Positions 4,225 through 64,000 of a stretch of 64,000 nucleotides of DNA are shown one piece after another. Both the position numbers and the translations under genes were made by a program. The notes beneath the pieces were generated by a model. That model was given only the letters and a program-made list of their open reading frames with translations, ran no database searches and had not been told where the DNA came from. Position 1 is the stretch's first letter; each line of letters opens with the position of its first letter. The DNA is taken from positions 24,173 through 88,172 of IMG/VR virus record IMGVR_UViG_3300005532_000007; one strand, given 5' to 3'. Source of the DNA: a virus.

Positions 4225-4626
4225 ATGTCTCTGGGTGAACTTCTCGCGGACGCTAAGGACGCGATCTCCCGGCTGCTCACGCACGCCGACCCGCAGGTGA
4301 CCGCGATCGCCCAGGAGGTGCACGACAAGGTCGGCGCCGCGCTGGAGCAGGCCGGTGCGGACGCCGCGGCGCTGGGGCACGAGGCGGTCGCGGACGCCGA
4401 GCAGCTCGGGCGCGAGGGTTCCGCCGCGGTCGCGCCGCTCGTGACGGAGGCCGAGCACGACGTGCAGGAGCTCGGCGGCGAGGCCGTGCATGACGCGGAG
4501 AGCATCGCGCAGTCGGCGGCCTCACCGCAGCAGGCCGCGGCCACCGAGCCCGCCCCCGCGCCGACCCCGGAGGCGCCGGCCGAGGGCGCCGCTCCCGAGG
4601 CCGAGCCGTCCGCGCCGACCGCATAA
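4225..4626 (+). CDS. Acidic Ala-rich hypothetical protein
   Basis: AGGAG RBS; repeated HD/HE..V motifs. Confidence 0.6.
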   Translation: MSLGELLADAKDAISRLLTHADPQVTAIAQEVHDKVGAALEQAGADAAALGHEAVADAEQLGREGSAAVAPLVTEAEHDVQELGGEAVHDAESIAQSAASPQQAAATEPAPAPTPEAPAEGAAPEAEPSAPTA

Positions 4627-4710
4627 CGGCGGCAGCGCCACACATCTGTACGGGCCACCGCCACCATCCCCGGGCGGTGGCCCGTCACATACCCCCGGAA
4701 GGAGCCGCCG

Positions 4711-5505: not shown

Positions 5506-5506
5506 C

Positions 5507-5815
5507 ATGGCCACCGTCGCGGGAGACAGCCGCGGCCCGGTGCGCCAAGCGATCGACCAGGAAGCAGCGCACTACCACCCGTGGGCGCAACTGGCCTGGT
5601 TCCTCACCTTATTCACGGGTGCGCTGATCATGCAGCTGTTCGGCGGTGCACACGTGGCCGGGTGGGCGGATCTGCGTTCCCTTTTAGTGAGCTGCGCCGG
5701 GATCGCGTGGAAGCAGTGGCGCAAGACCCTACCGGTGAAAACTGCGCAGCGCGTCGCGACAGAACACGAACAGGCCTGCGCCGGGCGTGATCCAGCAAAC
5801 CCAGCAACACCGTAA
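5507..5815 (+). CDS. Holin-like membrane protein
   Basis: Two hydrophobic segments, directly downstream of the lysin. Confidence 0.5.
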   Translation: MATVAGDSRGPVRQAIDQEAAHYHPWAQLAWFLTLFTGALIMQLFGGAHVAGWADLRSLLVSCAGIAWKQWRKTLPVKTAQRVATEHEQACAGRDPANPATP

Positions 5816-5825
5816 AAGGAGCCCG

Positions 5826-6041
5826 GTGAATGGCGACCCGCCGCGCAACCTCACTCTGGCCGAACTGTGGCGGATGCTTCAAGCCCTCACCGAACGCCTC
5901 CAGAAAGCCGAGGACGCGATCGAAGAACTGGAGAAACGCGGCCGCTGGACGCGCGCCGAGGTCATGCAGTTCGTATCGGTGGCGATCGCGGCGCTGGTAG
6001 TGGTGTGGAGCGTGTACACGGCGACGAAGGGTGCGAAGTGA
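5826..6041 (+). CDS. Small coiled-coil plus C-terminal TM protein (lysis cassette)
   Basis: [11 protein letters not shown]...coiled coil, C-terminal TM; AAGGAG RBS. Confidence 0.65.
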
Positions 6042-6904
6042 GCGGGCCGGGTCTGACGCGTAGTCGGCGGCGCTGGCGCGCGGCTGGTGTGGTGCTGCTG
6101 GTGGTGGTCGCCGGGTACGCGGTGTGGGGTATCCGGCAGTTGCAGGAGGCGAACGCGTCGCGGGACCGGGCGATCAGTGCTCTGTCGGTGCAGGTGGAGG
6201 CCTACCGGTCGCAGGCGGCTCAGCATGGGTTGCCGACGGGGCCGCCTCCGGTGCAGATCGTGCAGGGCGCGACGGGCGCGGCGGGTCCGCAGGGCGTGGC
6301 GGGGGCGCCGGGGATGCCGGGAGCCGCGGGCAGTCCTGGGCCGCGTGGCGAAACCGGTCCGGCCGGCAGTCCAGGTCCGGTCGGGCCAAGCGGCCCCGCT
6401 GGCGCTGCCGGTCCAGCCGGACCGGCCGGTGCGCAAGGCGAACCCGGGCCGGTGGGACCTCAAGGCGAGCCGGGCCCCGCTGGCCCGAGCGGCCCACCGG
6501 GGCCTGCCTGCCCGGACGGGTACAGCCAGCAACCGGAGAAGATCAACGGGCATGAGGCGCTGGTGTGCGAGGTGACACCGTCGCCGTCGCCCACCGGATC
6601 AGCCAGCGCTTCCGCGTCGCCGCCGTCCGCGTCTCCGACTCCTGTGCTGTCGACACCGGCACCGTCGGCCCAGCGCCGCGCGGCCGCACAACCGAGCCCG
6701 GCAGCCGTGATGGCGCGCAGTGCGCGCGTGGACATGGCCCCGGCCGCCGACGTGACGCCCACTTGCCCTGCCCCGGGTGCGCCGTCGCCGTCCACGCCGT
6801 CAGGTCCCGGGCCGCTCGCGCCGCTGAGCCTGTCGGATCCCGCGGCCCGGGTGCGGCGGATCGTGCCGGGGCCGGGTCAGCCGGTGTGGCCCACGGCGGC
6901 GTAG
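6038..6904 (+). CDS. Membrane-anchored collagen-like protein
   Basis: N-terminal TM, about 27 consecutive Gly-X-Y triplets, CPDGY...LVC motif, Pro/Ser tail. Confidence 0.8.
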
Positions 6905-7407
6905 GCCAGGCCGTTCTTCGCGGCACGGCCTTCGTTCATCAGCTGCACGAGGGTCGCGCCGAGCAGGGTGCCGGTGATGCCAGTGTCTCTGGCGATGGTT
7001 TTGGAGTCGCTGGCGCCGTGGGCGCGCAGGTAGGCGAGGATCACTTGGTCGGGGCTCAGGTCGGCCTCGTCCTCGGCGTCGGCTTCGGCAGGCTCGTCGG
7101 CGGTGGCCGGTCCGGGCAGGCTGGTGACGAAGCCCTCGTCCTGCGGGGTCGTGACGTGCTCCAGGAGCGTCTGCTCGTCGTAGACCGTGCCCAGCAGGGT
7201 GTGCGCGGCGCCGGCGCTGCTGGTCATGCCGAGGGCGGCCGCGAGCCGCTGGACGTCGACCGGCCCGTCTACGGAGAGCACGACGTACGGGGTGCCGTCG
7301 ACTTTGAGGAAGCCCTGGATTTTGGTGAGGGTCGCCATTTCGCGCTTGTGTTGCGCGGTCGGCGCGGCCGGGGCCTGTTCGGTCTCAGCCGTCGGGGTGG
7401 TGGTCAC
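6877..7407 (-). CDS. Hypothetical protein with C-terminal winged-helix
   Basis: [25 protein letters not shown]...LVQLMNEG wHTH pattern. Confidence 0.55.
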
Positions 7408-7435
7408 GGTGGCTCCCGGCGGTATCGGTGGGACG

Positions 7436-7472
7436 AAAAACGGCCCCGGCCACGTGGGGCGGCCGGGGCCGT
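7436..7472 (-). terminator. Intrinsic terminator after the transfer operon
   Basis: CGGCCCCGGCC/GGCCGGGGCCG hairpin followed by a T-tract on the minus strand. Confidence 0.65.
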
Positions 7473-7661
7473 GTGCGCGAGGCGAAGTTGCTGTGGGATC
7501 CGGGTCCGCAATGGCCCCGCGTCGCGCCTGTTGAGGATATCGCGTGCGGCGTGGGCGAGCCCCGTACGCCGGGGGGAAGGACGTGACGGGGCTCGCGATC
7601 CGGATCCAGGACCCACGGTAGCGGGCACAGCGCCGCCAGATGGAGCAGTTGAGCGCGGCGC

Positions 7662-8492
7662 CTACAGATACTGCCCAGTACCCCGCTCGGCGTCAGGCTC
7701 CGGTTCCCGGGAACCGACGCCCCACGCCGGGGCGAGCAGTGCCGCCGTGGCCGGGTCGTTGCCCAGCGCGGCGCGGGCCTCCGGACCCAGCTGCAGCAGC
7801 TCGCGTAGCGACGCGCCGATCGCCGGGCCGGTCCAGCGGGCCCCGGCCTGCTGCGCGTATGGGTCGTAGCCCAGGGCCATCGCGGTCTGCGCGCGCAGTG
7901 CCTCGCGCTGGGTGCGGGCGTTCTCTTTGATCCGGGTGCGTTCGATCGCGGCGTCGGCCCGCACTTGTTCGACAGTGATCGTGGTCGCGGCCTCGATCTG
8001 TTTGTGGCTCAAATCGGCGGCCCGCTGTGCCCGGCGTTCGGCGTCGCCGCGGCCGAGCAGGTGCCGCACGGATCCGGCGACCACGGCGGCGACCACGGCC
8101 CAGCCGACACGCAGCCACGGGTTGGTGGTGTACGCGCCGATCCCGAATTCGACGGCGCCGGCGGTCACGCCGAGGCAGGTGGCGGCGAGCCCCGGGTGGC
8201 GGCGCACCAGCACACCGCAGGCGCAGCTGGCGCCGGCAACCAGTCCCGCGATCACGGCGTCGCCTGCTGAGTGCGCGGCTCCGCCGGCGGATGCGCTGAA
8301 GGATGCCGCGAGGATGGCGGCGGGAGCGATCGAGGGTGGCCCGGCGGCGCGCAGGGCACGCCACAGCCAGCCGCCTGCGGGTTGAGCCGCGCCCTGAGCA
8401 ACTGGATAGGTTCCGTCGTGATGCTGGTACGAGCTCGGCGCCCACGGTGCCTCGTACGGCGCGGGCAGCCGGCTGCCAGGGGTGTGGTTCAT
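7662..8492 (-). CDS. Multi-TM Spd-like (spread) membrane protein
   Basis: About 4 TM segments plus a coiled coil; ATGA-coupled downstream of traB. Confidence 0.55.
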   Translation of the reverse strand: MNHTPGSRLPAPYEAPWAPSSYQHHDGTYPVAQGAAQPAGGWLWRALRAAGPPSIAPAAILAASFSASAGGAAHSAGDAVIAGLVAGASCACGVLVRRHPGLAATCLGVTAGAVEFGIGAYTTNPWLRVGWAVVAAVVAGSVRHLLGRGDAERRAQRAADLSHKQIEAATTITVEQVRADAAIERTRIKENARTQREALRAQTAMALGYDPYAQQAGARWTGPAIGASLRELLQLGPEARAALGNDPATAALLAPAWGVGSREPEPDAERGTGQYL

Positions 8493-10555
8493 GCTGCTGC
8501 TCCGTCCAGGACAGTGGCGCCGTTTCGCTGCGCGGCCGGGGCGAGGTATTTCGCCAGGGTCCAGCGGCCGGTGCCGGGTTCCTGGACGGCGCCGTTGCGC
8601 TGTAGGGCGTTTATCACGGCCGTGTCGGTGGCGCCGACCGCGGCGGCGATGTCGCATACGCGTTGCGGGTCGCCGGTGAACTCGAGGAACTGCTCCACGC
8701 GCGGCCAGGTCTCGCCGCGGGCCGGCTTGGTCTTCACGGTGATCGGCGTTGCCGATGCGTTTGCCGCAGGGGCGGCGTGCTCCGGTGCTGGTTGCGGTGC
8801 CGCGGCGCGGGTGTTCGCGGCGACCAGCGCGGGGTCGCGCAGCTGCCGGGCGAACAGTTCGCGCAGCGCGGCCGCCTGCTCGACGTGCGCCGAGCGGCCC
8901 GTGGCCAGCCAGCGGGCATCGGACTGCACGAAACGGATCGGCTGCCCGACCTCATCGCCGCCCGACGCCCGATAACCCAGGCCGCCGGTCGGCGAGCCGT
9001 CCGCGAAATGCGCCTGCAGTCCGCGCGGATCCACCCCGGCCACGCCGGGCGCCATGTTCAGCTTCGTCGCCAGACTCCCGCCACGCAGCAGGAACTTGTC
9101 CCCGGACACCAGGGCGTCGCGCAGCGTGTGGCTCGTGAGCACGTCCTCCGCGACCGAGATCGACAGGACGGTCAGGCGCACTGCCGCCTTACGGCCGCCC
9201 TCGGCGAGCTCCTCCAGCAGCCCGAGGATCTTCTTGTCGCGGCGCATCAGCGTCGGGACCTCGTCGATGTACCCGGACACCAGCGGCCGCTCAAAGGTGG
9301 GCCGGATCAGGTCGATGCCCTCGGCGGCCATCTGCCCGACCCGGGTGCGCAGCACCTGCACCATCGCCTCGAGGCTCAGGCGGATCTGCACGTACAGGTC
9401 CTCGATCGGCAGCGGGCGCGCGAACAGGTCGAGCTTGTCCAGCCACCCGGCGTAGGAGGCGCCGGCGTGCGGGTCGAGCACCCACGGCGCCACCACGGGA
9501 CGCCCGTGCTCGTCCGTGGTGTGCATGTCCAGGGTCAGCAGGGTGCGCGCGAGCTGGCTCTTGCCCGAGCCGGTCGAGCCGACGGCGACACGGTGTGGTG
9601 AGCCGAATCCGTCGATCCACACCCGGTAGGGCTGGTATTCGCCGGTGACGGTGCGGGCTAGCTGCGGGTGGGTGAACGAACCGGGCTGCGCGACGCGCTC
9701 GAGGCGGGCGGTGGCCTGCAGCGGGTTGCGTTCGAACACGTACAGGCGGGCGGTGCCGTCCGGGCGTGGCTGCGCGATGACGTTCGCCGGGTGGATCGCG
9801 GCGCGGCCGTCGCCGACGCCGGTGTACGCCTGCGCGATCAGATCGGTGTGCTCGATCAGCATCGCGGGCCGCTGCCGCACGGGCCCCTTGCCGAGGTTGA
9901 AGCGCACGGTGGCGGCGAACGCGAACCCGCCGGTGTCACTGAGCCGCTCGATCTGGTCGAGGGCGGTGCGGGGGAACTGGCCGCCCTCGCAGGCGAAACC
10001 CTCCTCCCACACATCCGCGATCAGGCGGGTGAACGCGTCGCGCGGATCGGCTGGGTCTTGCTGCTCGCCAGCAGACGGCTGGGTTTCGGCCGCGGCCGGG
10101 GCTGCGGGCGCTGCGGGCACGAGGCGGCGCAGCCACCAGGCGAGCGACAGCGGCGCGGTCAGCGTCCCGAACAGGATCAGCATGCTCTCGTGCAGCGGAG
10201 AGACCGCGCTGGCGCACGCGAGATACGTGATGGAGGAGGACGCGAGCGCGGCCTGATAGAGGCGGTGCGCGTTGGCCAGCGGGCGGCCGTTGCGTTTGCG
10301 CCACAGCCGGTGCGCGGCGTGCCCGCCGAGCGCCGCCGCCGTGGCGGCGCCCAAACCGAGCGCGTCGGTGACCCCGGTGACGCGGTGTGCTTCGCATCCG
10401 GCGGCGAACAGCACAGCCGCGCCGGTGACGGGCGCGTAGGCGGCGCGGTGACGCCAGTAGTGGCGTGCGGCCTTCCCGGGCGCGGTGTCGGCGAACTTCA
10501 CCGGCGCTGCGGCCGGTGCCGGCAGCACGGGAAGGTTCTGGCTCGGGCGGCCCAT
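8489..10555 (-). CDS. traB: TraB-type FtsK/SpoIIIE conjugative DNA translocase
   Basis: N-terminal TMs, Walker A GSTGSGKS, Walker B GYIDE, GGRKAAV Arg motif, C-terminal wHTH; context of Spd/NUDIX/GntR genes. Confidence 0.85.
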   Translation of the reverse strand: MGRPSQNLPVLPAPAAAPVKFADTAPGKAARHYWRHRAAYAPVTGAAVLFAAGCEAHRVTGVTDALGLGAATAAALGGHAAHRLWRKRNGRPLANAHRLYQAALASSSITYLACASAVSPLHESMLILFGTLTAPLSLAWWLRRLVPAAPAAPAAAETQPSAGEQQDPADPRDAFTRLIADVWEEGFACEGGQFPRTALDQIERLSDTGGFAFAATVRFNLGKGPVRQRPAMLIEHTDLIAQAYTGVGDGRAAIHPANVIAQPRPDGTARLYVFERNPLQATARLERVAQPGSFTHPQLARTVTGEYQPYRVWIDGFGSPHRVAVGSTGSGKSQLARTLLTLDMHTTDEHGRPVVAPWVLDPHAGASYAGWLDKLDLFARPLPIEDLYVQIRLSLEAMVQVLRTRVGQMAAEGIDLIRPTFERPLVSGYIDEVPTLMRRDKKILGLLEELAEGGRKAAVRLTVLSISVAEDVLTSHTLRDALVSGDKFLLRGGSLATKLNMAPGVAGVDPRGLQAHFADGSPTGGLGYRASGGDEVGQPIRFVQSDARWLATGRSAHVEQAAALRELFARQLRDPALVAANTRAAAPQPAPEHAAPAANASATPITVKTKPARGETWPRVEQFLEFTGDPQRVCDIAAAVGATDTAVINALQRNGAVQEPGTGRWTLAKYLAPAAQRNGATVLDGAAA

Positions 10556-10599
10556 GATCCTGGCTCCTTCTAGTGGTGCGGTCGGTCGGATGCGGATGG

Positions 10600-11829
10600 T
10601 TAGGCCAGCAGGAAGTCGTGGTCAGCCGAGCCGTGCCCGACGCGCGCCGTCTCGTCGCGGAACCCGCCCTGGTGGTTGGCGAGCGTCGCGCGCACCTGCC
10701 CGGCGACCTGCGCTGCGTTCTCCGCGTCACCCTGCACGCCCGGCATGAGCGCAGCCAGGGACGCTTCCATCTGCGCGATCTGGTCGCTCAGTTGCGCGGC
10801 CTGCGCGGCCTTGGCGGCCATCGCCTGGTAGACCTGCACGCTGTCGGCCATGGCGCCGACGGAGGCCTGGTCCACGCCGCGTTCGGCGGCGTTCTGGGTG
10901 CTGGCGGCCCACGCCGCGGCGGCCTGCCGGGCGGACGCGGCCAGCGCGTCGAGTGCCTGCGCGCGGGCGCCGGCGGAGGCGGCGCGGTTGGTGGCGATCG
11001 CGGCGTGCTGCCCGGCCTGACCGCTGATCTGGGTGGCGGCCTCGGCGCTACCGGAGGCGGCGGTCATGACTTGGCTGTAGGTCTCGGCAGCGGCGGGGGC
11101 GAGTTCATTGGCCATGGTTGTTCCGATCTGTGCGATGGGGATGTTCGTGGTGGGGATGCCGCGCGGTGCGCGCGGGAAAATGCCGTCGATAGTCGGGTCG
11201 TGAACAACCTCGGCGTCGGCGACATCCGCGGGTTCGGCGCGAGCCGTGGGGGCATCGGCAGCGTCGTCGACGATCTCGCCGTCCGCCGTGTCGCCGTCCT
11301 TCCAGTCGGCGGCGCGCGGCGGGGCACCTCCCGCCGGGCCGGGACCCGGCCGGGAGCCACCGAACCGGCGTCCGGCTCGATCGAACGGGCCGCGCGGCCA
11401 CGATCCGGTAAAGCCGCCGCGGGTGCGGTCACCGGCCGGGCCGCTCGCCGCGTCAGGCTCGTCGCCGCTACTCGTCGGCCGTGTGCCTTCGCGCGGGGCG
11501 CCCGGTTCGCGAGCGGGCCCGCCCAGGGCGCCGCGTGCGGCGCGCTTGGCCAGGTGCCAGCCGTCCACACCGGCCGCCCAACCGAACCCGGCGCCCAGCG
11601 CCAGGGCCCAGCCGATGCCCCGCGCGCCGAGATCCGCGAGCACCGATCCGGCGCCCGGGCCGCCCGGTTGCGCGGGGAACGCGTGGCGCAGCGCAGCGGC
11701 GATGCGCTGCGCTGACGCGGGCACCCGCTCGCTGAGCATCTCCCGCCCGTGCCGGACGACGGCGACCAACGACCAGATGATCACCGCGCCGAGTAGCACG
11801 CCCCACGCCTGCGCCGCATTGGTCACCAT
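10600..11829 (-). CDS. Transfer-region protein (N-terminal TM, Ala-rich coiled-coil C-terminus)
   Basis: Long ORF directly upstream of traB, as in actinomycete transfer regions. Confidence 0.55.
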   Translation of the reverse strand: MVTNAAQAWGVLLGAVIIWSLVAVVRHGREMLSERVPASAQRIAAALRHAFPAQPGGPGAGSVLADLGARGIGWALALGAGFGWAAGVDGWHLAKRAARGALGGPAREPGAPREGTRPTSSGDEPDAASGPAGDRTRGGFTGSWPRGPFDRAGRRFGGSRPGPGPAGGAPPRAADWKDGDTADGEIVDDAADAPTARAEPADVADAEVVHDPTIDGIFPRAPRGIPTTNIPIAQIGTTMANELAPAAAETYSQVMTAASGSAEAATQISGQAGQHAAIATNRAASAGARAQALDALAASARQAAAAWAASTQNAAERGVDQASVGAMADSVQVYQAMAAKAAQAAQLSDQIAQMEASLAALMPGVQGDAENAAQVAGQVRATLANHQGGFRDETARVGHGSADHDFLLA

Positions 11830-11836
11830 CGCTGGC

Positions 11837-12463
11837 TCACCCGAGCCCGAACCAAGAGCCGACCAGATGCCCGATCTCCGCCGCGAGCGCGGCGAACGGC
11901 ACCGCAGCCATCGCTCCGGCCGGTCCGGGCAGCGTGACGGTCAGCGGGCCGACGCCGATCGCGCCGTACTTCTCGAAGCGGTGCTCGATCCACTGCCAGG
12001 ACTTGCCGCCGGAGCGGCCCGCGGCGGCGCCTGGCCCGGCGGTGATGGCCGCGGGCCCGCTGCCGGCGCCGGTCCGCGAGCGGGCGGCCCGACGGCCTTG
12101 GACCGCGTCCCACAGGTGCAGGGCCGCCCACAGCAGCAGCGGGATCTCGATCAACGTCAGGATGCCGACGCTCGAGGGCCAGTTCGACGTGAGCTGCGTG
12201 GCGCGCGCCGCGTCGCGCAGCAGGCCCGCGGACCAGGTGTTGATGCCCTGCAGCAGGCGCGCGCCGGGAGACGCGAACAGGATCGTCGCGCCGGCCGCCA
12301 TGAGGATCTTGGCGAGCAGGTCGAGGATGCGGTGGCGGTGGGCGAGCTTGTGGTGCGCGAACCACGCGATCGCCAGGGTGATAGCGCCGACCGCCGCGGA
12401 GACGGCGGCGGTTCCGGCGGACAGTGCGAGGGTGGCGCTCTGCGCGAGCGCTTGCGGGTGCAT
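11837..12463 (-). CDS. Multi-TM Spd-like membrane protein
   Basis: 3-4 hydrophobic segments; GGAG RBS. Confidence 0.55.
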   Translation of the reverse strand: MHPQALAQSATLALSAGTAAVSAAVGAITLAIAWFAHHKLAHRHRILDLLAKILMAAGATILFASPGARLLQGINTWSAGLLRDAARATQLTSNWPSSVGILTLIEIPLLLWAALHLWDAVQGRRAARSRTGAGSGPAAITAGPGAAAGRSGGKSWQWIEHRFEKYGAIGVGPLTVTLPGPAGAMAAVPFAALAAEIGHLVGSWFGLG

Positions 12464-12585
12464 CAGGGGGCTCCGTTTCCGTTTTGACGTGAGTGGATCA
12501 GTGCTCTAATCTCGCGCGCGCGGGCGCGCGCCCGCGTGTAGGACCCGTTTTCGGGCCCGGGGCGGGTGTGAGCGGGGTTGTGAGT

Positions 12586-12915
12586 TCACGTGCCGTACCT
12601 CGCGATCACGGCGTCGAGTGCCTTGGTGGCGGCGGTCAGTGCCCGCTCGTTGTCCAGGGCGCGCACCTGGTCGGCGGCGACTTCGAACAGGGCGCGGGGG
12701 CTGTTGGCGGCGCGGTGGCGGCGGTCGGCGTAGAACGCGGCTCGGCGTGCGGCGCGGCGTTCGGATTTGCGCGGCCGGGCGCCCGCGGTGGGCGCCGGCT
12801 CGTCGTGGGTCGTCGAAGAGCGGCTCGCCGGGGTGGGCGACTCGACGCGTTGCGCGTCGGGTGATTCGCCGAGCCACTGCAACGCCCGCCGCGCCGCGGG
12901 TTTACGCGCCGTCAT
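12586..12915 (-). CDS. Hypothetical protein of transfer module
   Basis: ATGA-coupled to the upstream spd-like gene. Confidence 0.55.
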   Translation of the reverse strand: MTARKPAARRALQWLGESPDAQRVESPTPASRSSTTHDEPAPTAGARPRKSERRAARRAAFYADRRHRAANSPRALFEVAADQVRALDNERALTAATKALDAVIARYGT

Positions 12916-14054
12916 GAGGCACGCTCCTGCGGGGTGTCATCCGCGTTGCCGCGGCCGCCGCTCTTGCTGCGTCGGCTGCGTGTCACGCGCACGTAGACCT
13001 TGTCAACGGTGACACCCCGTGCGGCGAGTAGCGCTACGGCGTGTGAGGCGACACGCCCGGGTAGCAGGTCGTCGAGCCGCCGCACGGCTTCGGCCTGTGT
13101 CATCTCGTGCCACGCCGGGGGCCCGGCGGCGTCGAGGACGCGCAGGTCGGCTTCGAGATCGGCGTGCGGCAGGGGTGTCGCTGCGCCCGCGGTCAGGGGC
13201 GTCACGGTGGGGCGTGTCGCGCGGGGACGGCGGGGTGTCGCGGGAGTGTCGGTGCTACGTGCAGGGCGCGCCGGGGTATCGGCGCCTGCCGTCTCGCCCG
13301 TGGCGGTGGGCGTGTCAGTCGCAGGGGTATCGCCGCTACGCGTCGCGGCGACCGCGGCGGGGGTGTCGCTTTCGCCGAGGGCGATGGAGAGACGTGTCGC
13401 GGCCGATACGTGCCAGCGCCAGGCGCGGCCGTGTGTATCGCGCAGCGCGGCGATGCGGCCGAGACGTACACGTTCCATCGCGAGGGCGGTGCTGTAGGAG
13501 TTCTGGTGCCACAGGATCATGCGCCGCCACAGCTTCAGGGTCGGCCACGGCGAAAGCAGCCAGCGCGCCGCCGGGATCGGCTCGCGCAGGCTGCCGCCGT
13601 GCCGCAGCGCGGTGCGCCGCACGACGTGCCGCATGAGTTCGACGAACATCACCCACACGCTGGGCATCAGGACGTGCGCGACGCGGCCGGTGAGGTCTCC
13701 GCCGGCGGCGTAGTTGAGCCACACGGTCCCGAAGGTGGCGCCGTACACGGTCCAGCGCGCGAGCGGGTGGCTCATGCCGAGCCGGTTGAGGACGAGGTCG
13801 ACGCCGGAGAACACCAGGACGGTCAGGTCGACGACGAGCGGGACAAGCCACGCCCAGCGGGGCCCGAAGCTGGGGGTCATACGCACGGAGACGGCGTGGA
13901 AGGACAGGGCCATGCCGGCGACGGCGATGAGGGCGGCGAGGACGCCGATGACGACGGTGACGGTGAGCCAGCCGGGGCCGAGCGGTTCGGGCGTGGGGTC
14001 CGGGCCGTTGGGGTCGCGCTGGGTGGTCATGGTCGCCTCGCTGGTGGTGGTCAT
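12912..14054 (-). CDS. DUF2637-type Spd membrane protein
   Basis: AWLVPLVVD, TVWLN, HVLMP and IPAARWLLSPWPTLKLWRRMILW motifs typical of Streptomyces plasmid spread proteins. Confidence 0.8.
   Translation of the reverse strand: MTTTSEATMTTQRDPNGPDPTPEPLGPGWLTVTVVIGVLAALIAVAGMALSFHAVSVRMTPSFGPRWAWLVPLVVDLTVLVFSGVDLVLNRLGMSHPLARWTVYGATFGTVWLNYAAGGDLTGRVAHVLMPSVWVMFVELMRHVVRRTALRHGGSLREPIPAARWLLSPWPTLKLWRRMILWHQNSYSTALAMERVRLGRIAALRDTHGRAWRWHVSAATRLSIALGESDTPAAVAATRSGDTPATDTPTATGETAGADTPARPARSTDTPATPRRPRATRPTVTPLTAGAATPLPHADLEADLRVLDAAGPPAWHEMTQAEAVRRLDDLLPGRVASHAVALLAARGVTVDKVYVRVTRSRRSKSGGRGNADDTPQERAS
13172..13442 (+). repeat. About 10 co-oriented GGNGTRTCGC-like repeats inside the spd gene (candidate clt/TraB recognition locus)
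   Basis: Copies at about 13172, 13211, 13232, 13243, 13273, 13309, 13324, 13360, 13391 and 13433, falling in different reading frames. Confidence 0.6.
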
Positions 14055-14146
14055 CGGTCTCGCCTCCTTCGGAACTGGGGGTCAGATGGCGCGGTAGCGG
14101 TCGGTTTGCCCGGGCCAGGGGATGCCGTCCAGGGCGCGGGTCAGGG

Positions 14147-14893
14147 CTAGTGGTGCGGCGACCGGGAAGCGGCGGCCTCGATCACGTCCAGGTCGGCGCC
14201 GGACACCTGCGCGAGCCCGGCATGGACGAGCCACAGCACCCACACCGGTTCGATCCCGGGCGTGTCGGCGCTGCCGTGGGCGTAGGCGACGGTACGGGTG
14301 ACCAGGTCGGTGATCTGGGTGGCGGTGAGCCAGCGGGCGTTGCGGGTTTCGCGCGCGCTGGGGCTCAGCTGCCCAGTGGCGCTGGCGGTGTACACGCTCC
14401 AGTGGTGGCCGATGCCTGCGGGCCCGGCGGGGCGGCGGCAGACGTTGGGGCGCCATCCTCCGGTCACGAGGGTGAGCGGTCCGACGGTAAGGCCGGTTTC
14501 CTCGGCGGCTTCTGCTGCGGCGCCCTGTTCGGGGGTGCCGTGGGTGTCGATGTGTCCGGCGGCGGGGGCGGTGCCGGGGGGCGGGGTGTTGCGGTCGAAC
14601 ATGAGCCAGGTGCCGGTTTCGGGGTTGTGGATGAGGATCCCGACGCTGGTGTTGTCGCAGTGCGGGGTGATCGCGAGGATGCGGGCGGCGTCGAGGACGC
14701 GGGTGTGGCTGGGGCCGTGGGGGGTGAGGCGTGCGGGGATGAGTAGGTGGAGTCCGGGCGTGGGGTTGGTGGTCAGTTCGCGTAGGGCGTCGAGTTCGTC
14801 GGGTGTGACGCTGGCTGTGAGGGTTTGGGGATGGGGGTTGTCGGTTTGGTAGGTGATGTCGGCGGTGAGGGTGGCGGTCATGGTGGGGGTCAT
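14147..14893 (-). CDS. NUDIX hydrolase (pSAM2 Pif/MutT-like)
   Basis: AGHIDTHGTPEQGAAAEAAEETGL Nudix box variant; AICE-like context. Confidence 0.8.
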   Translation of the reverse strand: MTPTMTATLTADITYQTDNPHPQTLTASVTPDELDALRELTTNPTPGLHLLIPARLTPHGPSHTRVLDAARILAITPHCDNTSVGILIHNPETGTWLMFDRNTPPPGTAPAAGHIDTHGTPEQGAAAEAAEETGLTVGPLTLVTGGWRPNVCRRPAGPAGIGHHWSVYTASATGQLSPSARETRNARWLTATQITDLVTRTVAYAHGSADTPGIEPVWVLWLVHAGLAQVSGADLDVIEAAASRSPHH

Positions 14894-14986
14894 GGTGGGG
14901 GTCTCGTTTTCGTTGCGGTCGGGGCTGGCTCTCCGCCGGGGCACGTCCGGGGCACGTCCCGCGTGGGGGCGTGCCCTGGCGGAGGG

Positions 14987-15442
14987 TCAGAGCGTCGGGT
15001 AGTGCGGGACGGGTTCGGTCAGGTAGCCGGGCAGGTCCGGGTCGCCGAGCGGGATGGTGGCGATGACCGTGTGCCAGTCGCCGCGCGTGGTCTCGGTCAG
15101 TGAACTGGCCAGGACGGCGATGATGAGCAGGCCGCGGCCGTGTTCGTCGGTTTCGTAGGGGTCTTCGTTGTCGGCGGGAGTTTTGCCGGGCCGGTCGGTG
15201 ACGGTGAGGGTGAGCAGGTCGCCGGGCAGGTGTGCAGTAATGGCGAGCGGGGGTAGGGCGTGGGTGAGGGCGTTGGTGAAGAGTTCGGAGAGGACGAGGA
15301 CGGCACCGTCGGCGGTGTCGCCTTGGTAGCCGCGGCGGGTCAGATAGTCCGACAGCCAGGTGCGGGCGTGGGCGACGGTGGTTTTGTTCGGGTGGGCATA
15401 GGTGACGGCGTGGGTTGCCTGCTCGATCGTCGCGGCGGTCAT
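14987..15442 (-). CDS. HATPase_c RsbW-like ATP-binding protein (anti-sigma kinase-like)
   Basis: VLVLSELFTNALTHA N-box, VTD, EHGRGLLII G-box. Confidence 0.85.
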   Translation of the reverse strand: MTAATIEQATHAVTYAHPNKTTVAHARTWLSDYLTRRGYQGDTADGAVLVLSELFTNALTHALPPLAITAHLPGDLLTLTVTDRPGKTPADNEDPYETDEHGRGLLIIAVLASSLTETTRGDWHTVIATIPLGDPDLPGYLTEPVPHYPTL

Positions 15443-15486
15443 CGGTCCACTCCCGTGTGCTGCTGTGCGGCGCGCGTTGGTGTGTG

Positions 15487-15765
15487 TCACGCGGCACCGT
15501 CCAGGTGCGGCAGGTGGTCGAGGGCGTCGAGGGCGCTGACGGCCTGCTGGTCGTGTTCGGGGGTGTCGTTGAGGGCTTGGGTGGCCCATGCGGCGGCGGC
15601 GCGCCAGATGTCGGCGAGTACGTCCGTGGGGCGGCGGCCGGCGGCGAGTTGGTCGAGGCCGATTTCGACGGCGTCGTCCATGGCTTCGAGCTGTTCGAGG
15701 ATCGCGCCGCGCGGCGCGGTCGAGGTGTGCCGGTGGCCGGTGGGGAATTCCAGCACGACGCTCAC
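15487..15765 (-). CDS. Hypothetical protein
   Basis: GTGA-coupled ORF. Confidence 0.5.
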   Translation of the reverse strand: MSVVLEFPTGHRHTSTAPRGAILEQLEAMDDAVEIGLDQLAAGRRPTDVLADIWRAAAAWATQALNDTPEHDQQAVSALDALDHLPHLDGAA

Positions 15766-16103
15766 GAGGCCACCTGCCCGCTGTTCGCCGCGTCGGCGGC
15801 GGTGTCCCACAGATCGAGCAGCGTGTCGCGCACGGTGCCGCGGGCGTTTTCGTGCAGGGCGAGCGCGGTCATGAGCGCCGTGGTGGCCTGCTCGACGAGC
15901 TCGTGGGTGTCGGTGGGCTGGCCGTTCACAGACGGCGGGTCGATGCGCGGGGTGCCGGCGGTGACCCCACCCAGGTCGCTGAACTTCTCGATCTCGAGGG
16001 CGGCCTCGGACGCCATGAACTCGGCATACTTGGCCGCAGTCGTGCCGGCCGGGACCTCGAACGTGACGGGCAGGTGCAGGACGGTGCGGGCAGTGTCGCT
16101 CAT
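15762..16103 (-). CDS. Hypothetical protein
   Basis: TGATG-coupled ORF MSDTART... Confidence 0.55.
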   Translation of the reverse strand: MSDTARTVLHLPVTFEVPAGTTAAKYAEFMASEAALEIEKFSDLGGVTAGTPRIDPPSVNGQPTDTHELVEQATTALMTALALHENARGTVRDTLLDLWDTAADAANSGQVAS

Positions 16104-16468
16104 CAGGCGCCCGCGGTTTCCGCGGTACCCGCGAGGGCCTGCAGCTCGTAGTAGCGGGCGAGGTCCAGGTCGCCGTGCAGCAGCGCGTCGGTGGCCAGCA
16201 GCGCCATCGCCATCGGCTTGATCTGGTCCGGCTCCAGGGACATCCCGAACCCGGCCATGACGGTGAGCTGGGTGTTGCCCTTGTGCCGCTGCAGGGAGAA
16301 GACGGCCTCGGTCACGGCGTCTTCGTGGGGTCCGCGGTCGCCGAAGTTCAGGCGGATCGGGGTGTTGTAGCAGGAGCCGGCACCGGGTTCGTCGGGGTCC
16401 TCGTAGTGCTCGGCGGGGCTGCACCACGCGGCGTGGTTGTCGGCCGGCTGGGGTACGGTGGTGGTCAT
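16103..16468 (-). CDS. DUF6907-like hypothetical protein
   Basis: HAAWC...H...C motif and LEPDQIKPMAMALL ending. Confidence 0.55.
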   Translation of the reverse strand: MTTTVPQPADNHAAWCSPAEHYEDPDEPGAGSCYNTPIRLNFGDRGPHEDAVTEAVFSLQRHKGNTQLTVMAGFGMSLEPDQIKPMAMALLATDALLHGDLDLARYYELQALAGTAETAGA

Positions 16469-16617
16469 TGATCCGGTTCCTCTCGCGTGGTGGCGGATCG
16501 CGGGCCCGGCGGTGAAGGCGTCACCGCCGGGCTTCGGCCTGCTCGGGGATGGTGCTGGTCGGACTGGGCGCCCAGCGGCCGTGCGTGGAGGGGGCGGCCG
16601 CCGGGCTTCCGGCCCGG

Positions 16618-16812
16618 TCAGGACGTGCTGATCTCATTGCGCACGGCGTTATAGACCAGGTCCATGTCGCCGTCGTTCAGGTCGATGCCGTTGTCGGCGC
16701 AGTAGTCCTCGATCCACTGGGTGATCGAGGCGCCGTCGGGGTGGGGACCGTGCTCGTCAAGCAGCCCGGGGGTGACCTGCTTGGCGAGGTCGGCGGCTTC
16801 GATGGCGTCCAT
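16618..16812 (-). CDS. Small acidic hypothetical protein
   Basis: AAGGA RBS; high-GC codon usage. Confidence 0.55.
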   Translation of the reverse strand: MDAIEAADLAKQVTPGLLDEHGPHPDGASITQWIEDYCADNGIDLNDGDMDLVYNAVRNEISTS

Positions 16813-16898
16813 CGGTTCGGGTTCCTTCCTGCTGGCTGGTGCGGGGTGGCTGCCGCCCGCGGCTGGAGTGCGGCCAGGCCGCGGGCGGCGGCTCGGGG

Positions 16899-17069
16899 TT
16901 ACCGCGGGACGCCGTCGGGCCAGATCAGCGCGGTCAGGCGCGCCGAGTCCTGCGCTTGGTCTGGGGAGGGCTCTCCTGCCGCGTTGGTGTGGTTGTTGAG
17001 CCGGTTGCGCAGGGACTCGGCTTGGGTTTCGAGCGTGACGCGTTCTGCGGGGGTCAGGGGTCTGGGCAT
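16899..17069 (-). CDS. 56-aa hypothetical protein (below the ORF-track cutoff)
   Basis: AAGGAG RBS then MPRPLTPAERVTLETQAESLRNRL...VPR*. Confidence 0.6.
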   Translation of the reverse strand: MPRPLTPAERVTLETQAESLRNRLNNHTNAAGEPSPDQAQDSARLTALIWPDGVPR

Positions 17070-17114
17070 GTCGGTCTCCTTGTTTGGCCGGTTTCGGGCG
17101 GCGCTCGTGGGCGG

Positions 17115-17327
17115 CTAAGCCGCAGCGGGGGTGGCGCCAATCGCGTTGCGAGCCATGTACGCCTCGACGGATGAGCGGGTTACGCGGATGCGGGTCTTAG
17201 TCGGCCCGACGCGAAACGCCTCGAACTCCCCTGCCGCGATCTCCCGCAGGATCGTCGCCTTACTCACGCCGACGATGCCGGCGACCTGCGCGGGCGTCAG
17301 CTTGTCGGTGCCCTCGGTGGTCTGCAT
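17115..17327 (-). CDS. xis: Excisionase-like HTH_17 DNA-binding protein
   Basis: LTPAQVAGIVGVSKATILREIAAGEFEAFRVG...IRVTRSSVEAYM. Confidence 0.85.
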   Translation of the reverse strand: MQTTEGTDKLTPAQVAGIVGVSKATILREIAAGEFEAFRVGPTKTRIRVTRSSVEAYMARNAIGATPAAA

Positions 17328-17366
17328 CGGTCGGCTCCTAGCTGGTGCGTTACTTCCAACGCCTCA

Positions 17367-17401
17367 ACCGTAGCGCTATGGTGCTATGGCGTCAATGACG
17401 C
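17367..17401 (-). promoter_or_regulatory. SigA/HrdB-type promoter of the xis-transfer operon with operator repeats
   Basis: TTGACG-N17-TACGGT; tandem CCATAGC in the spacer; ATAGCGCTA shared with the GntR promoter. Confidence 0.75.
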
Positions 17402-17418
17402 TAGGCTGAATCAGGCAA

Positions 17419-17445
17419 AGAAAAAGCCCCGGAGTCAGCCGGGGC
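17419..17445 (-). terminator. Intrinsic terminator downstream of the GntR gene
   Basis: GCCCCGG-CTGACT-CCGGGGC followed by TTTTT. Confidence 0.7.
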
Positions 17446-17461
17446 CGCTGGCGAGGAGGTG

Positions 17462-18211
17462 TCAGGCGTCGTGAACCGGAAGGTCATACTCCAGCTCGTA
17501 GCGCTCGGCACTGAACACGATGTCCAGCGCCTCAACCGGATGCCCATCGTCAGTCCACGTCACGCGCAGGGTGCGCAGAACCGGGACACCCGACGGAATC
17601 CGCAGTGTCTCCACCTCGAACGAAGTGGGCATTCTGCCCGTCACCCATTCGCGACAGGCCCGCGGCGGGTAGCCCAGCCGCTTCAGCACCGTGGGCGTCG
17701 CACCCTTGAGCTTCGCTCTGAAGGCGAGTGGCGTGTCGAATGCGACGTCCAACGGGAAGTACGAGGTCGCGATCTCCAGCGGATCACCGTTCGCGTTGCG
17801 CATGACGCGCCGCCGCATCACGACCTGCTCGTCGGGTTCGACCTCCAGCTTCAAAGCCACTTCATCAGGAGGCGTCACGACATCAACCTCTGGCGGGTCA
17901 GAGCGGCCGTGTGGCGGTTTGGTGCCTTCGGCGACCGGCGATACGAAGTCTGCCGATCGGCTGATCTCGCGCTTCACCTGCCGCACGTAGACACCCTTGC
18001 CAGGCGCGGATTCCACCAGGCCGGCCGCCTTGAGTGCGCGCACCGCCTTCTGGACCGTCGTGGCCGCCACATGATGCTGAGCGGCCAACGCCGTCACCGA
18101 GGGGATCGCGGCGCCTGGTGGGATCTCGCCGTTCTCGATCTTCTTCCGAAGATCCGTCACGATCCGGATGTACGCCGGTTCGCCACTCCACTCGGTCATG
18201 GGCGGCCTCAC
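17462..18211 (-). CDS. GntR/HutC (UTRA) regulator, KorA/KorSA/TraR-like
   Basis: PAYIRIVTDLR...IPSVTALA...TVQKAVRALKAAGLVESAPGKGVYV HTH plus UTRA domain; adjacent to the transfer module. Confidence 0.9.
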   Translation of the reverse strand: MRPPMTEWSGEPAYIRIVTDLRKKIENGEIPPGAAIPSVTALAAQHHVAATTVQKAVRALKAAGLVESAPGKGVYVRQVKREISRSADFVSPVAEGTKPPHGRSDPPEVDVVTPPDEVALKLEVEPDEQVVMRRRVMRNANGDPLEIATSYFPLDVAFDTPLAFRAKLKGATPTVLKRLGYPPRACREWVTGRMPTSFEVETLRIPSGVPVLRTLRVTWTDDGHPVEALDIVFSAERYELEYDLPVHDA

Positions 18212-18340
18212 TCCCTGTCGGCGTCTAAGCGCTACAGCACCAAAGATGCTCTAGCGCTATACGCTACACAGTGTGTAGGGCGTCCCGTCAATGCGACCCG
18301 ATATCCGCTACCTGCGGCTTTCGTGGCAACGACAGAGCAA

Positions 18341-18784
18341 CTATGCGGCTTTCCCGTGGCTGCCGCGGTGCAACTGCGTATCCGACGTGTGCGCCGCCAA
18401 ATCAGCCTTAATCGCCTGAACCACCCGCTGCACATCCTCAATCCGCGATGTCAACCGCGCCTCGGCCCGACCCACCTCACCGGTCACAAACTCCGGCAAA
18501 GCAGCGATCGCCTGCTGCTGCTGATGCACGATCCCCGAGATCGCCTCAAGGGTCTGCGTGGTCTCCGTGTGCCGAGATTCGGCCAGCTCAACATATGCGT
18601 GGAAGTCCAGCCTCAGCGTGCCCAGATCAGACTTGATCCCGGCGACGTCATCACGCACCGCGTTCTGGCCAGCCGCAAGAGCAGCGATCGCCGCACCATG
18701 CTCACCCTGCACACGAGCCACCGCGCCGATCGCATCCAACACGTCACGCAGCGTCGGCTCGCCAGCGGGCTGAGGGCTCGTCAT
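18341..18784 (-). CDS. Coiled-coil hypothetical protein
   Basis: Heptad-like composition. Confidence 0.55.
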   Translation of the reverse strand: MTSPQPAGEPTLRDVLDAIGAVARVQGEHGAAIAALAAGQNAVRDDVAGIKSDLGTLRLDFHAYVELAESRHTETTQTLEAISGIVHQQQQAIAALPEFVTGEVGRAEARLTSRIEDVQRVVQAIKADLAAHTSDTQLHRGSHGKAA

Positions 18785-19114
18785 GACACCACCGTACCGG
18801 GCGGCGCTGCACGCATAAAGCGACTCTCCGGAAACGCATCAGCACGCGGCTTGATCAGCAAAGACGCACGGAAACGAGAAACGCTTCAATGCGTCATTAT
18901 TGAGGGGCACTCACTACCCCAAGCAAAAGGAAAGGCCGGTTCCCGGGGAAGGAACCGGCCCCCACGATCAGCGAGTTGGCCGCTCGCCAGACCACTTGCG
19001 CTAAGGAGTCGCGACACCCGATGGACAACACGATCAACTCATCCACAAAGCAGTCGCACTCATGACGATAACGCATCTCGCCGACAGCCGCCGCCGACCA
19101 CCACGCGGTGCCTC

Positions 19115-19897
19115 GTGAGCCACGAAGCCATCGACTGGGCCATCAAGCAGGACGCACGCGGCAACGCCCCCCGGAAGCTGATCCTCATCCTCCTCGCCAA
19201 CCGCGCCGACGACGCATGGGTCTGCTGGCCAAGCAACCGCCTGATCGCCGAGGAGTCCGGGCTGAGCATCCGACAAGTCGTCCGACACATCGCATCACTC
19301 GAACAGGACGGCCTGATCCGGCGCGTGCCCTGGGAACGGGCAGATGGCGGCCAAGGCGCGAACGTCTTCGCGCTCGGCCCAACAGCCACCGATGCCCCCG
19401 TGTCATGTACGACACGGGGAGGGGGTCATGTACGACATGGGGGGTGGGTCACTGATGACACCCCCCGGGTGTCATACACGACACCCCTAGAACCCAAAGA
19501 AGAAACCACAAAGAACCCTCACTCATCCGGCCCGCGCGAAGAATCGCGGGGCCGCTCGCTCGCTGACGCGAACGAGACGCACACGCCGCACCAGCCAACC
19601 GAACGCGAACTCTGGCAAGCGATCCGCGCCACCGCGCTCCACAACCCCGACACCTACCAACGGCAAATCGACACCATCCGCGCCCGCGCACCCCGGCTCT
19701 GGCGAGACGCCACAGACGCCGCGTTCACGCAGTTCCGAGAGAACGACTCTCCCCACCAGCACGACCCCGCGCAGGTCGCATTGCTCGCCTACCAGTACGT
19801 GATCCAGATGCGGGCACCGGATTGGCCGGCGTGGCTGCTCGGTCCGCTGCTGCCGATGCTCGCCACAACCCAAACCGACACCACCCGCGCCGCATGA
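19115..19897 (+). CDS. HTH_36 replication-initiator-like protein
   Basis: MSHEAIDWA...KLILILLANRADD..CWPSNRLIAEESGLSIRQVVRHIASLEQDGLI; internal iterons. Confidence 0.8.
   Translation: MSHEAIDWAIKQDARGNAPRKLILILLANRADDAWVCWPSNRLIAEESGLSIRQVVRHIASLEQDGLIRRVPWERADGGQGANVFALGPTATDAPVSCTTRGGGHVRHGGWVTDDTPRVSYTTPLEPKEETTKNPHSSGPREESRGRSLADANETHTPHQPTERELWQAIRATALHNPDTYQRQIDTIRARAPRLWRDATDAAFTQFRENDSPHQHDPAQVALLAYQYVIQMRAPDWPAWLLGPLLPMLATTQTDTTRAA
19400..19484. repeat. Four iterons GTCA-N5-GACA at an exact 23-bp period (putative origin)
   Basis: GTCA starts at 19402, 19425, 19448 and 19471. Confidence 0.8.
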
Positions 19898-19914
19898 CCA
19901 GCACCGGAGCAACC

Positions 19915-20034: not shown

Positions 20035-20039
20035 TCATT

Positions 20040-20873: not shown

Positions 20874-20914
20874 CTCTCACGATTCGCTATCAGTGCTCGC
20901 ACGGTAACGCCGGG

Positions 20915-63763: not shown

Positions 63764-63883
63764 GCTGCCCGCGAAACCGGGGCCCGGCCAGGGTTTTTGC
63801 CCAGTTGTGATGTAGAACCTGCTGTAGGGTTCTTTACCCCTCGCGGACCCGTACTATATCCGCTGGTAGTGGCTATCAATGTC

Positions 63884-63910
63884 TGGTGTCCGAGGGGGGA
63901 CTTGAACCCC
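63884..63910 (-). other. att core = 3' end of tRNA-Leu (T arm + acceptor + CCA); no full tRNA present
   Basis: GGGGTTCAAGTCCCCCCTCGGACACCA; upstream sequence is not tRNA; GGCGA(C/G)T repeats at 63951, 63961 and 63971. Confidence 0.85.
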
Positions 63911-64000
63911 GCTTGCACAGCAGGTCAGCAGGTAGACGGCTCGCGCGAATGGCGACTAAAGGCGACTGGCGGCGAGTTTTGACCGCTGCGTGCTCCAAAA

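Follow-up and report, generated by a model that had tools for sequence, protein, structure and literature searches.

A putative TraB-type DNA-transfer block within the genome of an integrative temperate actinophage

Phages and conjugative elements are usually regarded as alternative transmission strategies. In this study, a window of viral DNA of 64,000 nucleotides was analysed (bases 24173-88172 of the 88,172-bp IMG/VR record IMGVR_UViG_3300005532_000007, classed as having direct terminal repeats), in which a leftward run of genes, termed the block below, encodes a TraB-like DNA translocase among the genes of a tailed phage. The reading favoured here is that the record represents an integrative temperate tailed phage of ~88 kb with a resident, functional double-stranded DNA (dsDNA) transfer block of the kind found on plasmids and on the integrative and conjugative elements of actinomycetes (AICEs), and a probability of roughly 0.55 was assigned to it. 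The block is very probably an integral part of the phage. By our analysis, the chances are about even that the phage genome is moved by it, whether from one mycelium to another or inside a single one.

Among the described systems, the AICEs of the pSAM2 type resemble this phage in having a tRNA-targeting tyrosine integrase, the GntR-family repressor KorSA, a NUDIX immunity factor, and spread genes beside a single FtsK-like Tra protein, which in AICEs mediates dsDNA transfer. In the consulted parts of two sources, KorSA is given as a GntR-family repressor and Pif as a NUDIX protein that gives conjugal immunity (PMC2440964, PMC3218068). The consulted part of the second source also states that spread genes adjoin tra in Streptomyces elements, and defines AICEs by Int, Rep and Tra (PMC3218068); the AICEs named in a review abstract measure 10.9-17.3 kb. 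AICEs carry no virion genes, whereas in this phage the virion gene set is complete, no Rep_trans gene was found in six-frame searches, and the integrase lies 45 kb from the block. Thus, clustered Int, Rep and Tra genes in a short att-bounded element were not what was found here.

The plasmid pZL12, or phage ZL12 (GQ919031, 90,435 bp, circular), is like this phage a tailed-phage genome of ~90 kb with a Streptomyces host. Zhong et al. (2010, J Bacteriol 192:3747) reportedly presented it as a Streptomyces plasmid-phage with a tra locus. According to the consulted part of one paper, it is an extrachromosomally replicating temperate singleton phage (PMC7157519), and a source consulted in part reports synteny of pSLE1 (86.4 kb) with it (PMC4487206); elsewhere, in text available in part, it is described as a plasmid-phage whose tra genes are cited for conjugal transfer. 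Beside its virion operon are a GntR gene (pZL12.80), small genes, and genes for a membrane protein (pZL12.73c), a 766-aa protein (pZL12.72c) and an FtsK/SpoIIIE-like 725-aa protein (pZL12.71c), and we infer which of these correspond to traA-traC. The pZL12.71c protein aligned to the profile of the translocase family with an hhalign probability of 95 (E 4e-8). The novelty implied by an initial sequence-only reading of the window was therefore overstated. The idea itself is not new, pZL12 being the precedent; what appears to be new is the combination's occurrence in a clade of integrating phages and in a translocase family that annotation pipelines miss. The two genomes also differ: pZL12 is annotated with ParA and ParB, whereas this phage gave no ParB_N or AAA_31 match and has attP and a tyrosine integrase; pZL12 shares matches with only 5 of the ~135 genes here, and pZL12.73c has no similarity to the DUF2637 protein of the block. 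Of the virion genes plus partition or replication genes that define a phage-plasmid of the pZL12 kind, the virion genes are present here, and in place of partition genes an integrase and attP were found.

The prophage phiM2 of Streptomonospora litoralis (NZ_CP036456, 89,998 bp) also possesses all the virion genes, and the terminases of the two phages are 41% identical. It is described in the consulted part of the paper as a chromosomal prophage also occurring in the form of a low-abundance circular episome (PMC8448680). Within bases 916-6271 of NZ_CP036456, phiM2 encodes a DUF2637 protein, a 291-aa protein and, two genes past DUF2637, a 718-aa protein of the FtsK family, whose Walker A motif is G-x4-GKT and which aligned to the translocase family with a probability of 96 (E 3.8e-9). 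The host belongs to a different genus and order, only 8 genes were matched, and ParB-like genes are annotated in phiM2. The parts of its description that were consulted mention no transfer function (PMC8448680).

Furthermore, tblastn with the translocase matched 21 plasmid records (18 from Streptomyces, 2 from Kitasatospora and 1 from Streptosporangium) at 26-30% identity, and no match was obtained among 50,697 phage records. The plasmids NZ_CP106800 and NZ_CP119148 have an arrangement like that of the block, with a divergent GntR gene followed by small genes, DUF2637, small genes, a gene of ~400 aa and one of ~690 aa; a NUDIX gene lies near the block on one of the two. The blocks of the Streptomyces and Kitasatospora plasmids are homologous to the one studied here, with identities of 31% for GntR, 30% for DUF2637 (over 204 aa in the case of NZ_CP106800) and 27% for the translocase, and a gene similar in size to that of the 409-aa protein occupies the equivalent position on the plasmids. 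In contrast to this phage, NZ_CP106800 and NZ_CP119148 are linear and without virion genes in the stretches viewed, and the identities are low. Compared with these systems, the element is neither an AICE nor a phage-plasmid of the pZL12 type, and works like a hybrid of these two, an integrating temperate phage with a TraB-type block.

The block extends on the minus strand from the GntR/UTRA gene to that of a 176-aa protein (18211 to 6877), with genes called by third-position G+C (GC3). The run of genes from GntR-UTRA to TraB in the sequence-only reading was borne out, with Pfam matches to GntR and UTRA, HTH_17, HATPase_c_2, NUDIX and DUF2637, each of them on the minus strand. Every gene in the run is open, and the GC3 was 0.84-0.94 from the 176-aa gene to HTH_17. 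The central gene encodes the 688-aa translocase, which carries the Walker A motif GSTGSGKS and a Walker-B-like pair, D431-E432. Across an alignment of 130 sequences, G326, G331 and K332 of Walker A, as well as E432, were invariant.

Searches with the single protein returned little. No match was found among the PDB sequences by phmmer, the sole NCBIfam match, to EccC, spanned 26 residues around Walker A (0.003), and a word-indexed search recovered only four translocase relatives; the relatives P0002-P0004 were 81-84% identical and lay on contigs of 8.5, 47.9 and 129.6 kb. Pattern scans based on a narrow alignment (A1) found no translocase relative in genome contigs (0/55 stretches) or viral contigs (0/62). 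An exhaustive profile search, by comparison, gave 607 cluster representatives at E<=0.001. When compared with the PDB, the family profile matched the motors of EccC (2e-23), FtsK (3e-19) and TcpA, a coupling protein of clostridia (1e-10), and its positions ~570-650 matched Z-alpha, MarR and other winged helices (7e-7 to 1e-2). Among 65 members scanned, FtsK_SpoIIIE (PF01580) was matched by 37, MarR_2 by 14 and TrwB_AAD_bind by 7, whereas the query matched none of them.

An AlphaFold model built from the 130-sequence alignment had a mean predicted local distance difference test (pLDDT) score of 85.4; a first model from 5 sequences (pLDDT 40) was discarded without a structure search. Foldseek ranked FtsK motor domains first (E 5e-13, with a TM-score to target of 0.60-0.64) and EccC and TcpA next. 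The model contained three helices and a hairpin at residues 616-666, forming a C-terminal winged helix, and four confident N-terminal helices at residues 25-143. Accordingly, both the RecA-fold motor of the FtsK/SpoIIIE type (by profile and fold) and the C-terminal winged helix (by profile and model) of a TraB-type translocase were found. The architecture of Streptomyces TraB likewise consists of helices at the N-terminus, a motor of the FtsK type and a winged helix at the C-terminus. The earlier assignment of this gene as a TraB with Walker A/B motifs and a winged helix-turn-helix thus held by family profile, predicted fold and invariant residues, and failed at the level of a direct Pfam family. 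Public annotation calls the family hypothetical or helix-turn-helix, and the names of 10 representatives were uninformative. The family appears to be a divergent TraB-like branch missed by annotation pipelines.

The phage nature of the record was supported by its structural genes. The large terminase matched phrog_38 (2e-59), the portal phrog_104 (8e-63) and the major head protein phrog_10 (8e-20) of the PHROGs database, and the closest relatives of the terminase are those of Streptomyces phages, at ~43% identity. Terminase, portal, capsid and several tail genes occupy the part of the record upstream of the window as well as the first 7 kb of the window. Early genes fill the right two-thirds of the window, and include two exonucleases (YqaJ and RNase_T), ERF and DUF5131, a pair of DNA methylases, a DnaC/IstB-like loader, an M78 peptidase and several HTH regulators. 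Together, the terminase, portal, major capsid and tail genes and an integrase with attP are those of a temperate tailed phage (Caudoviricetes). The block is entered from the left through a collagen-repeat tail-fibre gene, which is the final late gene ahead of it and not a lysin. The lysis cassette that the sequence-only reading had placed there was not recovered: neither 4225-4626 nor 4711-5505 matched a lysin or holin family in Pfam or PHROGs, and with those families of these databases that were tried, the genes tested yielded no lysis gene. On the right, the gene at 19115-19897 gave tblastn matches in 125 phage records, the top rows of which are annotated as replication proteins. With the tail fibre on the left and, on the right, this gene, whose product resembles lambdoid replication protein O in its N-terminal half, both flanks of the block are of phage type. 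The sequence-only reading had overlooked this right-hand gene, as well as the attP junction formed by the record ends.

A single recombination system was found for the whole record. Both Phage_integrase matches in the six-frame search fell in one open reading frame (ORF), the sole recombinase found, and no match was obtained in these searches for Resolvase, Rep_trans, ParB_N or the ParA family AAA_31, the only ParA family searched. The att core equals exactly the last 27 nt of tRNA-Leu(GAG) in 79 of the 80 actinomycete loci examined. Host identity ended at the core in all 80 loci, with 0-3 nt extra on the downstream side; the terminal repeat itself begins 3 nt outside the core, and its remaining 90 nt are phage-specific. 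Because host identity stops at the core in 80/80 loci, the 120-bp overlap is the attP junction of a closed circle, and the right end reads integrase arm, core, terminase arm. The record is therefore a closed circle with its break point at the edge of the att core. An interpretation of the 120-bp repeat as attL/attR was rejected, as hosts match only 27 (+0-3) nt of it.

The att core is present in two copies in the record, both at the record ends, and no internal copy was found in the record. A tRNA look-alike at 33529-33655 was considered as an internal copy and rejected, having only the T-loop motif in common. Rfam detected no tRNA or tmRNA in the 120-bp repeat, and ARAGORN detected none in the record. 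The core was found exactly in at least 120 actinomycete genome stretches, mostly of Streptomyces and also of Micromonospora, Kitasatospora, Nocardiopsis and others; owing to this wide occurrence, the host genus is not identifiable from the core. The element most plausibly integrates into the 3' end of tRNA-Leu(GAG) by means of its one tyrosine integrase, in a host that is predicted to be a Streptomyces-like actinomycete. The pair of att sites encloses all 88 kb, including the virion genes, and the integrase and the translocase are 45 kb apart. Among exact direct repeats on the two sides of the block, the longest was 13 bp, compared with 12-19 bp (mode 14) in 177 control zone pairs. Hence, the flanking att pair or target duplication that was sought as a refutation of residence in the phage was not found, and the earlier statement that there is no RepSA, second integrase or att duplication holds as tested.

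Sequencing runs also linked the block to the phage. In run X1, a 9,041-bp contig covered 5229-14269 with 0 differences at a depth of 14.1, and a 46.6-kb contig covered 14877 to beyond 22000 at a depth of 14.7. In run X2, from another study and another habitat, 90% of the sampled words were present, and the listed pieces covered both flanks and the block at depths of 6.8-10.3 with 0-2 differences each. No RNA run was among the public runs listed as containing the record's sequence.

Four IMG/VR contigs have a portal 77-78% identical to that of this phage. G013 (109.5 kb) and G014 (116 kb) have direct terminal repeats and a CheckV value of 100 and are classed as complete, and their entire structural region is colinear with that of this phage at 69-80% nucleotide identity. 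In both, a translocase matched the family profile (6e-30 and 2.5e-26, respectively), with a weak DUF2637-like match directly upstream. The G014 contig starts inside terL, so that the G014 circle holds the virion genes and the block together. The GntR proteins of G013 and G014 are 34% identical to that of this phage, which is also 33% identical to pZL12.80 (E 1e-15). In G013, homologues were found of the HTH_17 protein (51% identity) and, by tblastn, of the 113-aa and 121-aa proteins (43% and 35%, respectively). Divergence among the relatives is much greater in the block than in the backbone, and in G013 the block has other neighbours; it behaves like a cassette whose kind is conserved and which is either exchanged or fast-evolving. 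The proposal that the module is part of the phage genome is thus upheld by the one att/integrase pair, the bridging contigs, the independent sample X2 and the two relatives, classed as complete, with a similar block.

The co-occurrence of traB with terminase and tail genes, which the sequence-only reading had suggested searching for, was found, for TraB-like genes, in G013, G014, phiM2 and pZL12. Of the IMG/VR records with a translocase relative, 11 were examined, and 8 of these (G001-G008) hold full-length family members; with the probes used, a phage hallmark was detected in only 3 of the 8 (G002, G004 and G006), all three being predicted proviruses with uncertain borders. G009-G011 encoded only short ATPase-core proteins (234-354 aa) and were dropped as evidence, and both records with direct terminal repeats among the 11 were within this dropped group. 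The Pfam probes TerL_ATPase (0/11, without a positive control) and PhageMin_Tail (1/11) performed poorly and were replaced by PHROG families matching this phage. The hallmark search did not extend to the contigs L021-L023 (5.6-17.4 kb).

The features of the block and of its surroundings are listed in Table 1.

Table 1. Features of the block, its flanks and the att region (positions in the window)
Feature	Position	Strand	Basis and remarks
Collagen-repeat tail-fibre protein, 345 aa	5867..6904	+	PHROG tail-fibre families, best 4e-22; Pfam Collagen 5e-14
176-aa protein, last gene of the run	6877..7407	-	No Pfam or NCBIfam family
183-aa protein, hydrophobic N-terminal part	7662..8213	-	GC3 call; start uncertain (331-aa form would start at 8657)
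TraB-like dsDNA translocase, 688 aa	8489..10555	-	Profile and fold; FtsK-type motor, winged helix
409-aa protein, N-terminal transmembrane (TM)-like segment, Ala/Gln-rich C-terminal half	10600..11829	-	Weak DUF7427 match (0.001), below cut-off
208-aa membrane protein, Spd-like by position only	11837..12463	-	Three TM-like segments; no family (Pfam, NCBIfam)
98-aa basic protein, between DUF2637 and membrane protein	12586..12882	-	Gene call; no significant family (Pfam, NCBIfam)
DUF2637 membrane protein, 380 aa, Spd-type by position	12912..14054	-	Pfam 5.5e-21; domain aa 39-188, then tail
Candidate clt, eight GG[GCA]GT[GA]TC copies in 196 bp	13172..13367		Inside the tail-coding part of DUF2637; ninth copy at 12931
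NUDIX hydrolase, 265 aa; family and context Pif-like	14147..14944	-	Pfam 6.5e-12
RsbW-like anti-sigma-type kinase	14987..15442	-	Pfam HATPase_c_2 4e-11
Five small acidic proteins (92, 113, 121, 64, 56 aa)	15487..17069	-	Gene calls; no Pfam family
HTH_17 (excisionase/MerR-type) DNA-binding protein, 70 aa	17115..17327	-	Pfam 2e-10
GntR/UTRA (HutC-type) regulator, KorSA-like by family	17462..18211	-	Pfam 3e-16 / 2.5e-20; heads the run
HTH_36 protein, N-terminal half like lambdoid replication protein O	19115..19897	+	Pfam HTH_36 1e-13
Tyrosine integrase, 476 aa	62324..63754	-	Pfam Phage_integrase 1.5e-10; adjoins attP
120-bp terminal overlap, identical to record bases 1-120	63881..64000		attP junction
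27-nt att core, 3' end of tRNA-Leu(GAG)	63884-63910	-	Terminal overlap

TM-like segments were counted at a Kyte-Doolittle threshold of 1.6 over 19 residues. Two such segments were above the threshold in the DUF2637 protein, and the gene at 7662 has one in its 331-aa form only and none in its 183-aa form, with no family in Pfam or NCBIfam. The C-terminus of the 176-aa protein resembles the winged-helix end of the translocase family (profile A3, E 3.7e-7, profile positions 524-623). At ~4.4 kb to the right of the block, a free-standing FtsK gamma domain protein of 208 aa is encoded at 22652-23278 (+; Pfam 1.7e-14), a DNA-recognition domain that might work with the translocase. Moreover, a partner-switching set is scattered over the phage: the RsbW-like kinase is encoded in the block, and the early region (20975-21736, 39299-40021 and 40184-40960) encodes two STAS proteins together with a PP2C phosphatase. 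That the likely partners of the kinase are encoded outside the block hints at a regulatory integration of block and phage.

TraB binds 8-bp repeats of the clt locus. Descriptions of clt are given in the consulted part of PMC3583192. On the plus strand, 9 of the 21 matches to GG[GCA]GT[GA]TC in 88 kb fall at 12931-13367, a count that is weakened by the motif having been defined from this very region. In a motif-free scan (any 8-mer, one mismatch, 300-bp windows), the same site was the top 8-mer cluster of the 64-kb window, with 9 copies, against 3 at the median and 5 at the 95th percentile. The copies stand in two codon phases, six reading Asp-Thr-Pro and three Ala-Thr-Pro/Arg, which points to a constraint on the DNA. 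The top cluster of G013 (10 copies of a different 8-mer) was located in the tail of its DUF2637-like ORF, immediately before the translocase, and a cluster among the top two lay in or beside the membrane-protein gene adjoining the translocase in phiM2, in pZL12 and in one plasmid. As evidence of a clt site, the cluster is suggestive only.

If the block functions as proposed, the GntR/UTRA repressor would keep the leftward operon off in the lysogen. After relief of repression and excision of the prophage, a membrane-associated TraB-like hexamer would bind the 8-bp repeats of the candidate clt through its winged helix and pump the circular dsDNA into a neighbouring hypha. The DUF2637 protein and the other membrane proteins would then spread the DNA across septal cross-walls, and the NUDIX protein may limit redundant transfer between cells already carrying the element.

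Several observations weigh against this interpretation. Transfer, excision and packaging of the element are predictions from its nucleotide sequence. The translocase itself matched no Pfam family at E 0.01, FtsK_SpoIIIE (PF01580) included, and its N-terminal helices were all below the TM-like threshold. The comparison with an experimentally studied system is the profile alignment of pZL12.71c, at a probability of 95 and over the motor region only. In G013 and G014 the DUF2637 match was below the Pfam cut-off. For the repeats, no cluster adjoined the translocase in 2 of the 6 comparator loci (one plasmid and G014), an exact-8-mer scan left the candidate clt window only tied with three others, and a protein tail of low complexity could give rise to such repeats as a by-product. 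Moreover, run X1 is a possible sample of origin and hence not independent, and among the X2 pieces listed none crosses the left junction, 6704-7884. In addition, AICEs are reported, in the consulted part of one source, to replicate before transfer (PMC2440964). Finally, since the neighbours of the block differ between this phage and G013, the block behaves as an exchangeable cassette and could be cargo.

Other explanations were weighed against the same evidence. An artefact, that is, a chimeric assembly or an independent AICE in or beside the prophage with its own excision, would fit the metagenomic origin of the record as well as the uncertain borders of the proviruses G001-G008 and the scarcity of phage hallmarks among them. 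It is very improbable and already largely refuted: both junctions are bridged by contigs without differences and at equal depth, a second study has matching DNA, the circularly closed relative G014 holds both gene sets, and there is no second recombinase, Rep_trans or att copy, with flanking repeats at background level. Joints reported in the alignment of the contigs to the record were not used, the data being metagenomic; among the 15 listed, with sides of 20-26 letters, none had a side of at least 30 letters. It is also improbable, though far less so, that the block is cargo or an exclusion system, namely a captured plasmid or AICE fragment that blocks plasmids, AICEs or superinfecting phages, or an FtsK-like ATPase aiding maintenance or segregation of the prophage or episome, with no self-transfer. 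The G+C content of the block (72.6%, compared with 69.5% for the whole record), the occurrence of relatives on plasmids and in none of the phage records, the differing neighbours, and the role of the NUDIX protein Pif as an immunity factor, as given in a source consulted in part (PMC2440964), are all in agreement with such an origin. However, the genes of the run are open with coding-type GC3 and the Walker residues of the motor are intact, and an operon with regulator, membrane partners and repeat cluster has been kept in three related phages despite deep divergence, which exceeds what exclusion would need.

A slightly better candidate, still unlikely, is a block that acts within one mycelium only, moving phage or prophage DNA across septal cross-walls or into spore compartments with no conjugation. 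DUF2637 and other membrane proteins dominate the block, the intramycelial spread genes of Streptomyces elements are contiguous to tra according to the consulted part of PMC3218068, and the block has been kept in kind and not in sequence among related phages, as expected of a host-interaction function. On the other hand, the equivalent block on plasmids is a transfer locus, the tra genes of pZL12 are cited for conjugal transfer in the partly available literature, and the Pif-like NUDIX and KorSA-like GntR proteins fit a control of transfer between cells. A resident transfer block that acts on the phage genome was therefore preferred.

A broader proposal is possible but rather doubtful at this stage: that this phage, G013 and G014 represent a clade of 88-116-kb integrative actinophages that keeps a fast-evolving second transmission module, in which a GntR switch and a NUDIX immunity factor are joined by Spd-type membrane proteins, a divergent TraB family and a clt in the tail-coding part of the spd-like gene, and by which the excised circle, needing no virions, would be pumped between hyphae. 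If this were true, a temperate phage would gain receptor-independent spread, and the statement of a 2025 review, in the part consulted, that no phage-plasmid has been found to be conjugative would be contradicted. Judging by this record, by its two relatives classed as complete and by phiM2, TraB-type blocks seem to be recurrent in temperate actinophages, both chromosomally integrating ones and plasmid-phages. Such systems escape the usual detection, we infer, because they have no relaxase or type IV secretion genes. In a limited literature search, which cannot prove absence from print, no description of an integrating prophage with a TraB block was found. Should the block work, phages could reach adsorption-resistant hosts and cross mycelia without lysis, and prophage-borne genes would gain a second route of horizontal transfer in antibiotic-producing actinomycetes.

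Some further features of the phage were observed. Two very large proteins of the structural region, both encoded upstream of the window (1020 and 965 aa; record bases 9093-12155 and 18270-21167), matched no PHROG family at 0.001, and the 965-aa protein occupies the expected position of the tape measure. Only two genes are common to this phage, phiM2 and pZL12, namely a small exonuclease-like gene at 1937-2521 (-; phrog_2259, 7e-49), with 44-45% identity to both, and a D12-class methylase gene at 44164-44988. Iteron-like repeats (GGTCGG x8, GGTCGGG x6 and CGTGACTC-like x8) occur at 46800-47830, inside a gene for a 357-aa protein immediately upstream of the DnaC/IstB-like loader. They are probably the phage replication origin, located within an initiator gene as in lambda O; similarly, an AICE review, in the part consulted, reports that RepAM binds repeats of 8 bp that lie in its gene. 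Further to the left, at 27287-28704 (-), the gene of a DUF6879 protein (9e-51) precedes that of an HTH_31+DUF5753 regulator (8e-31), a gene pair that is conserved in actinomycetes.

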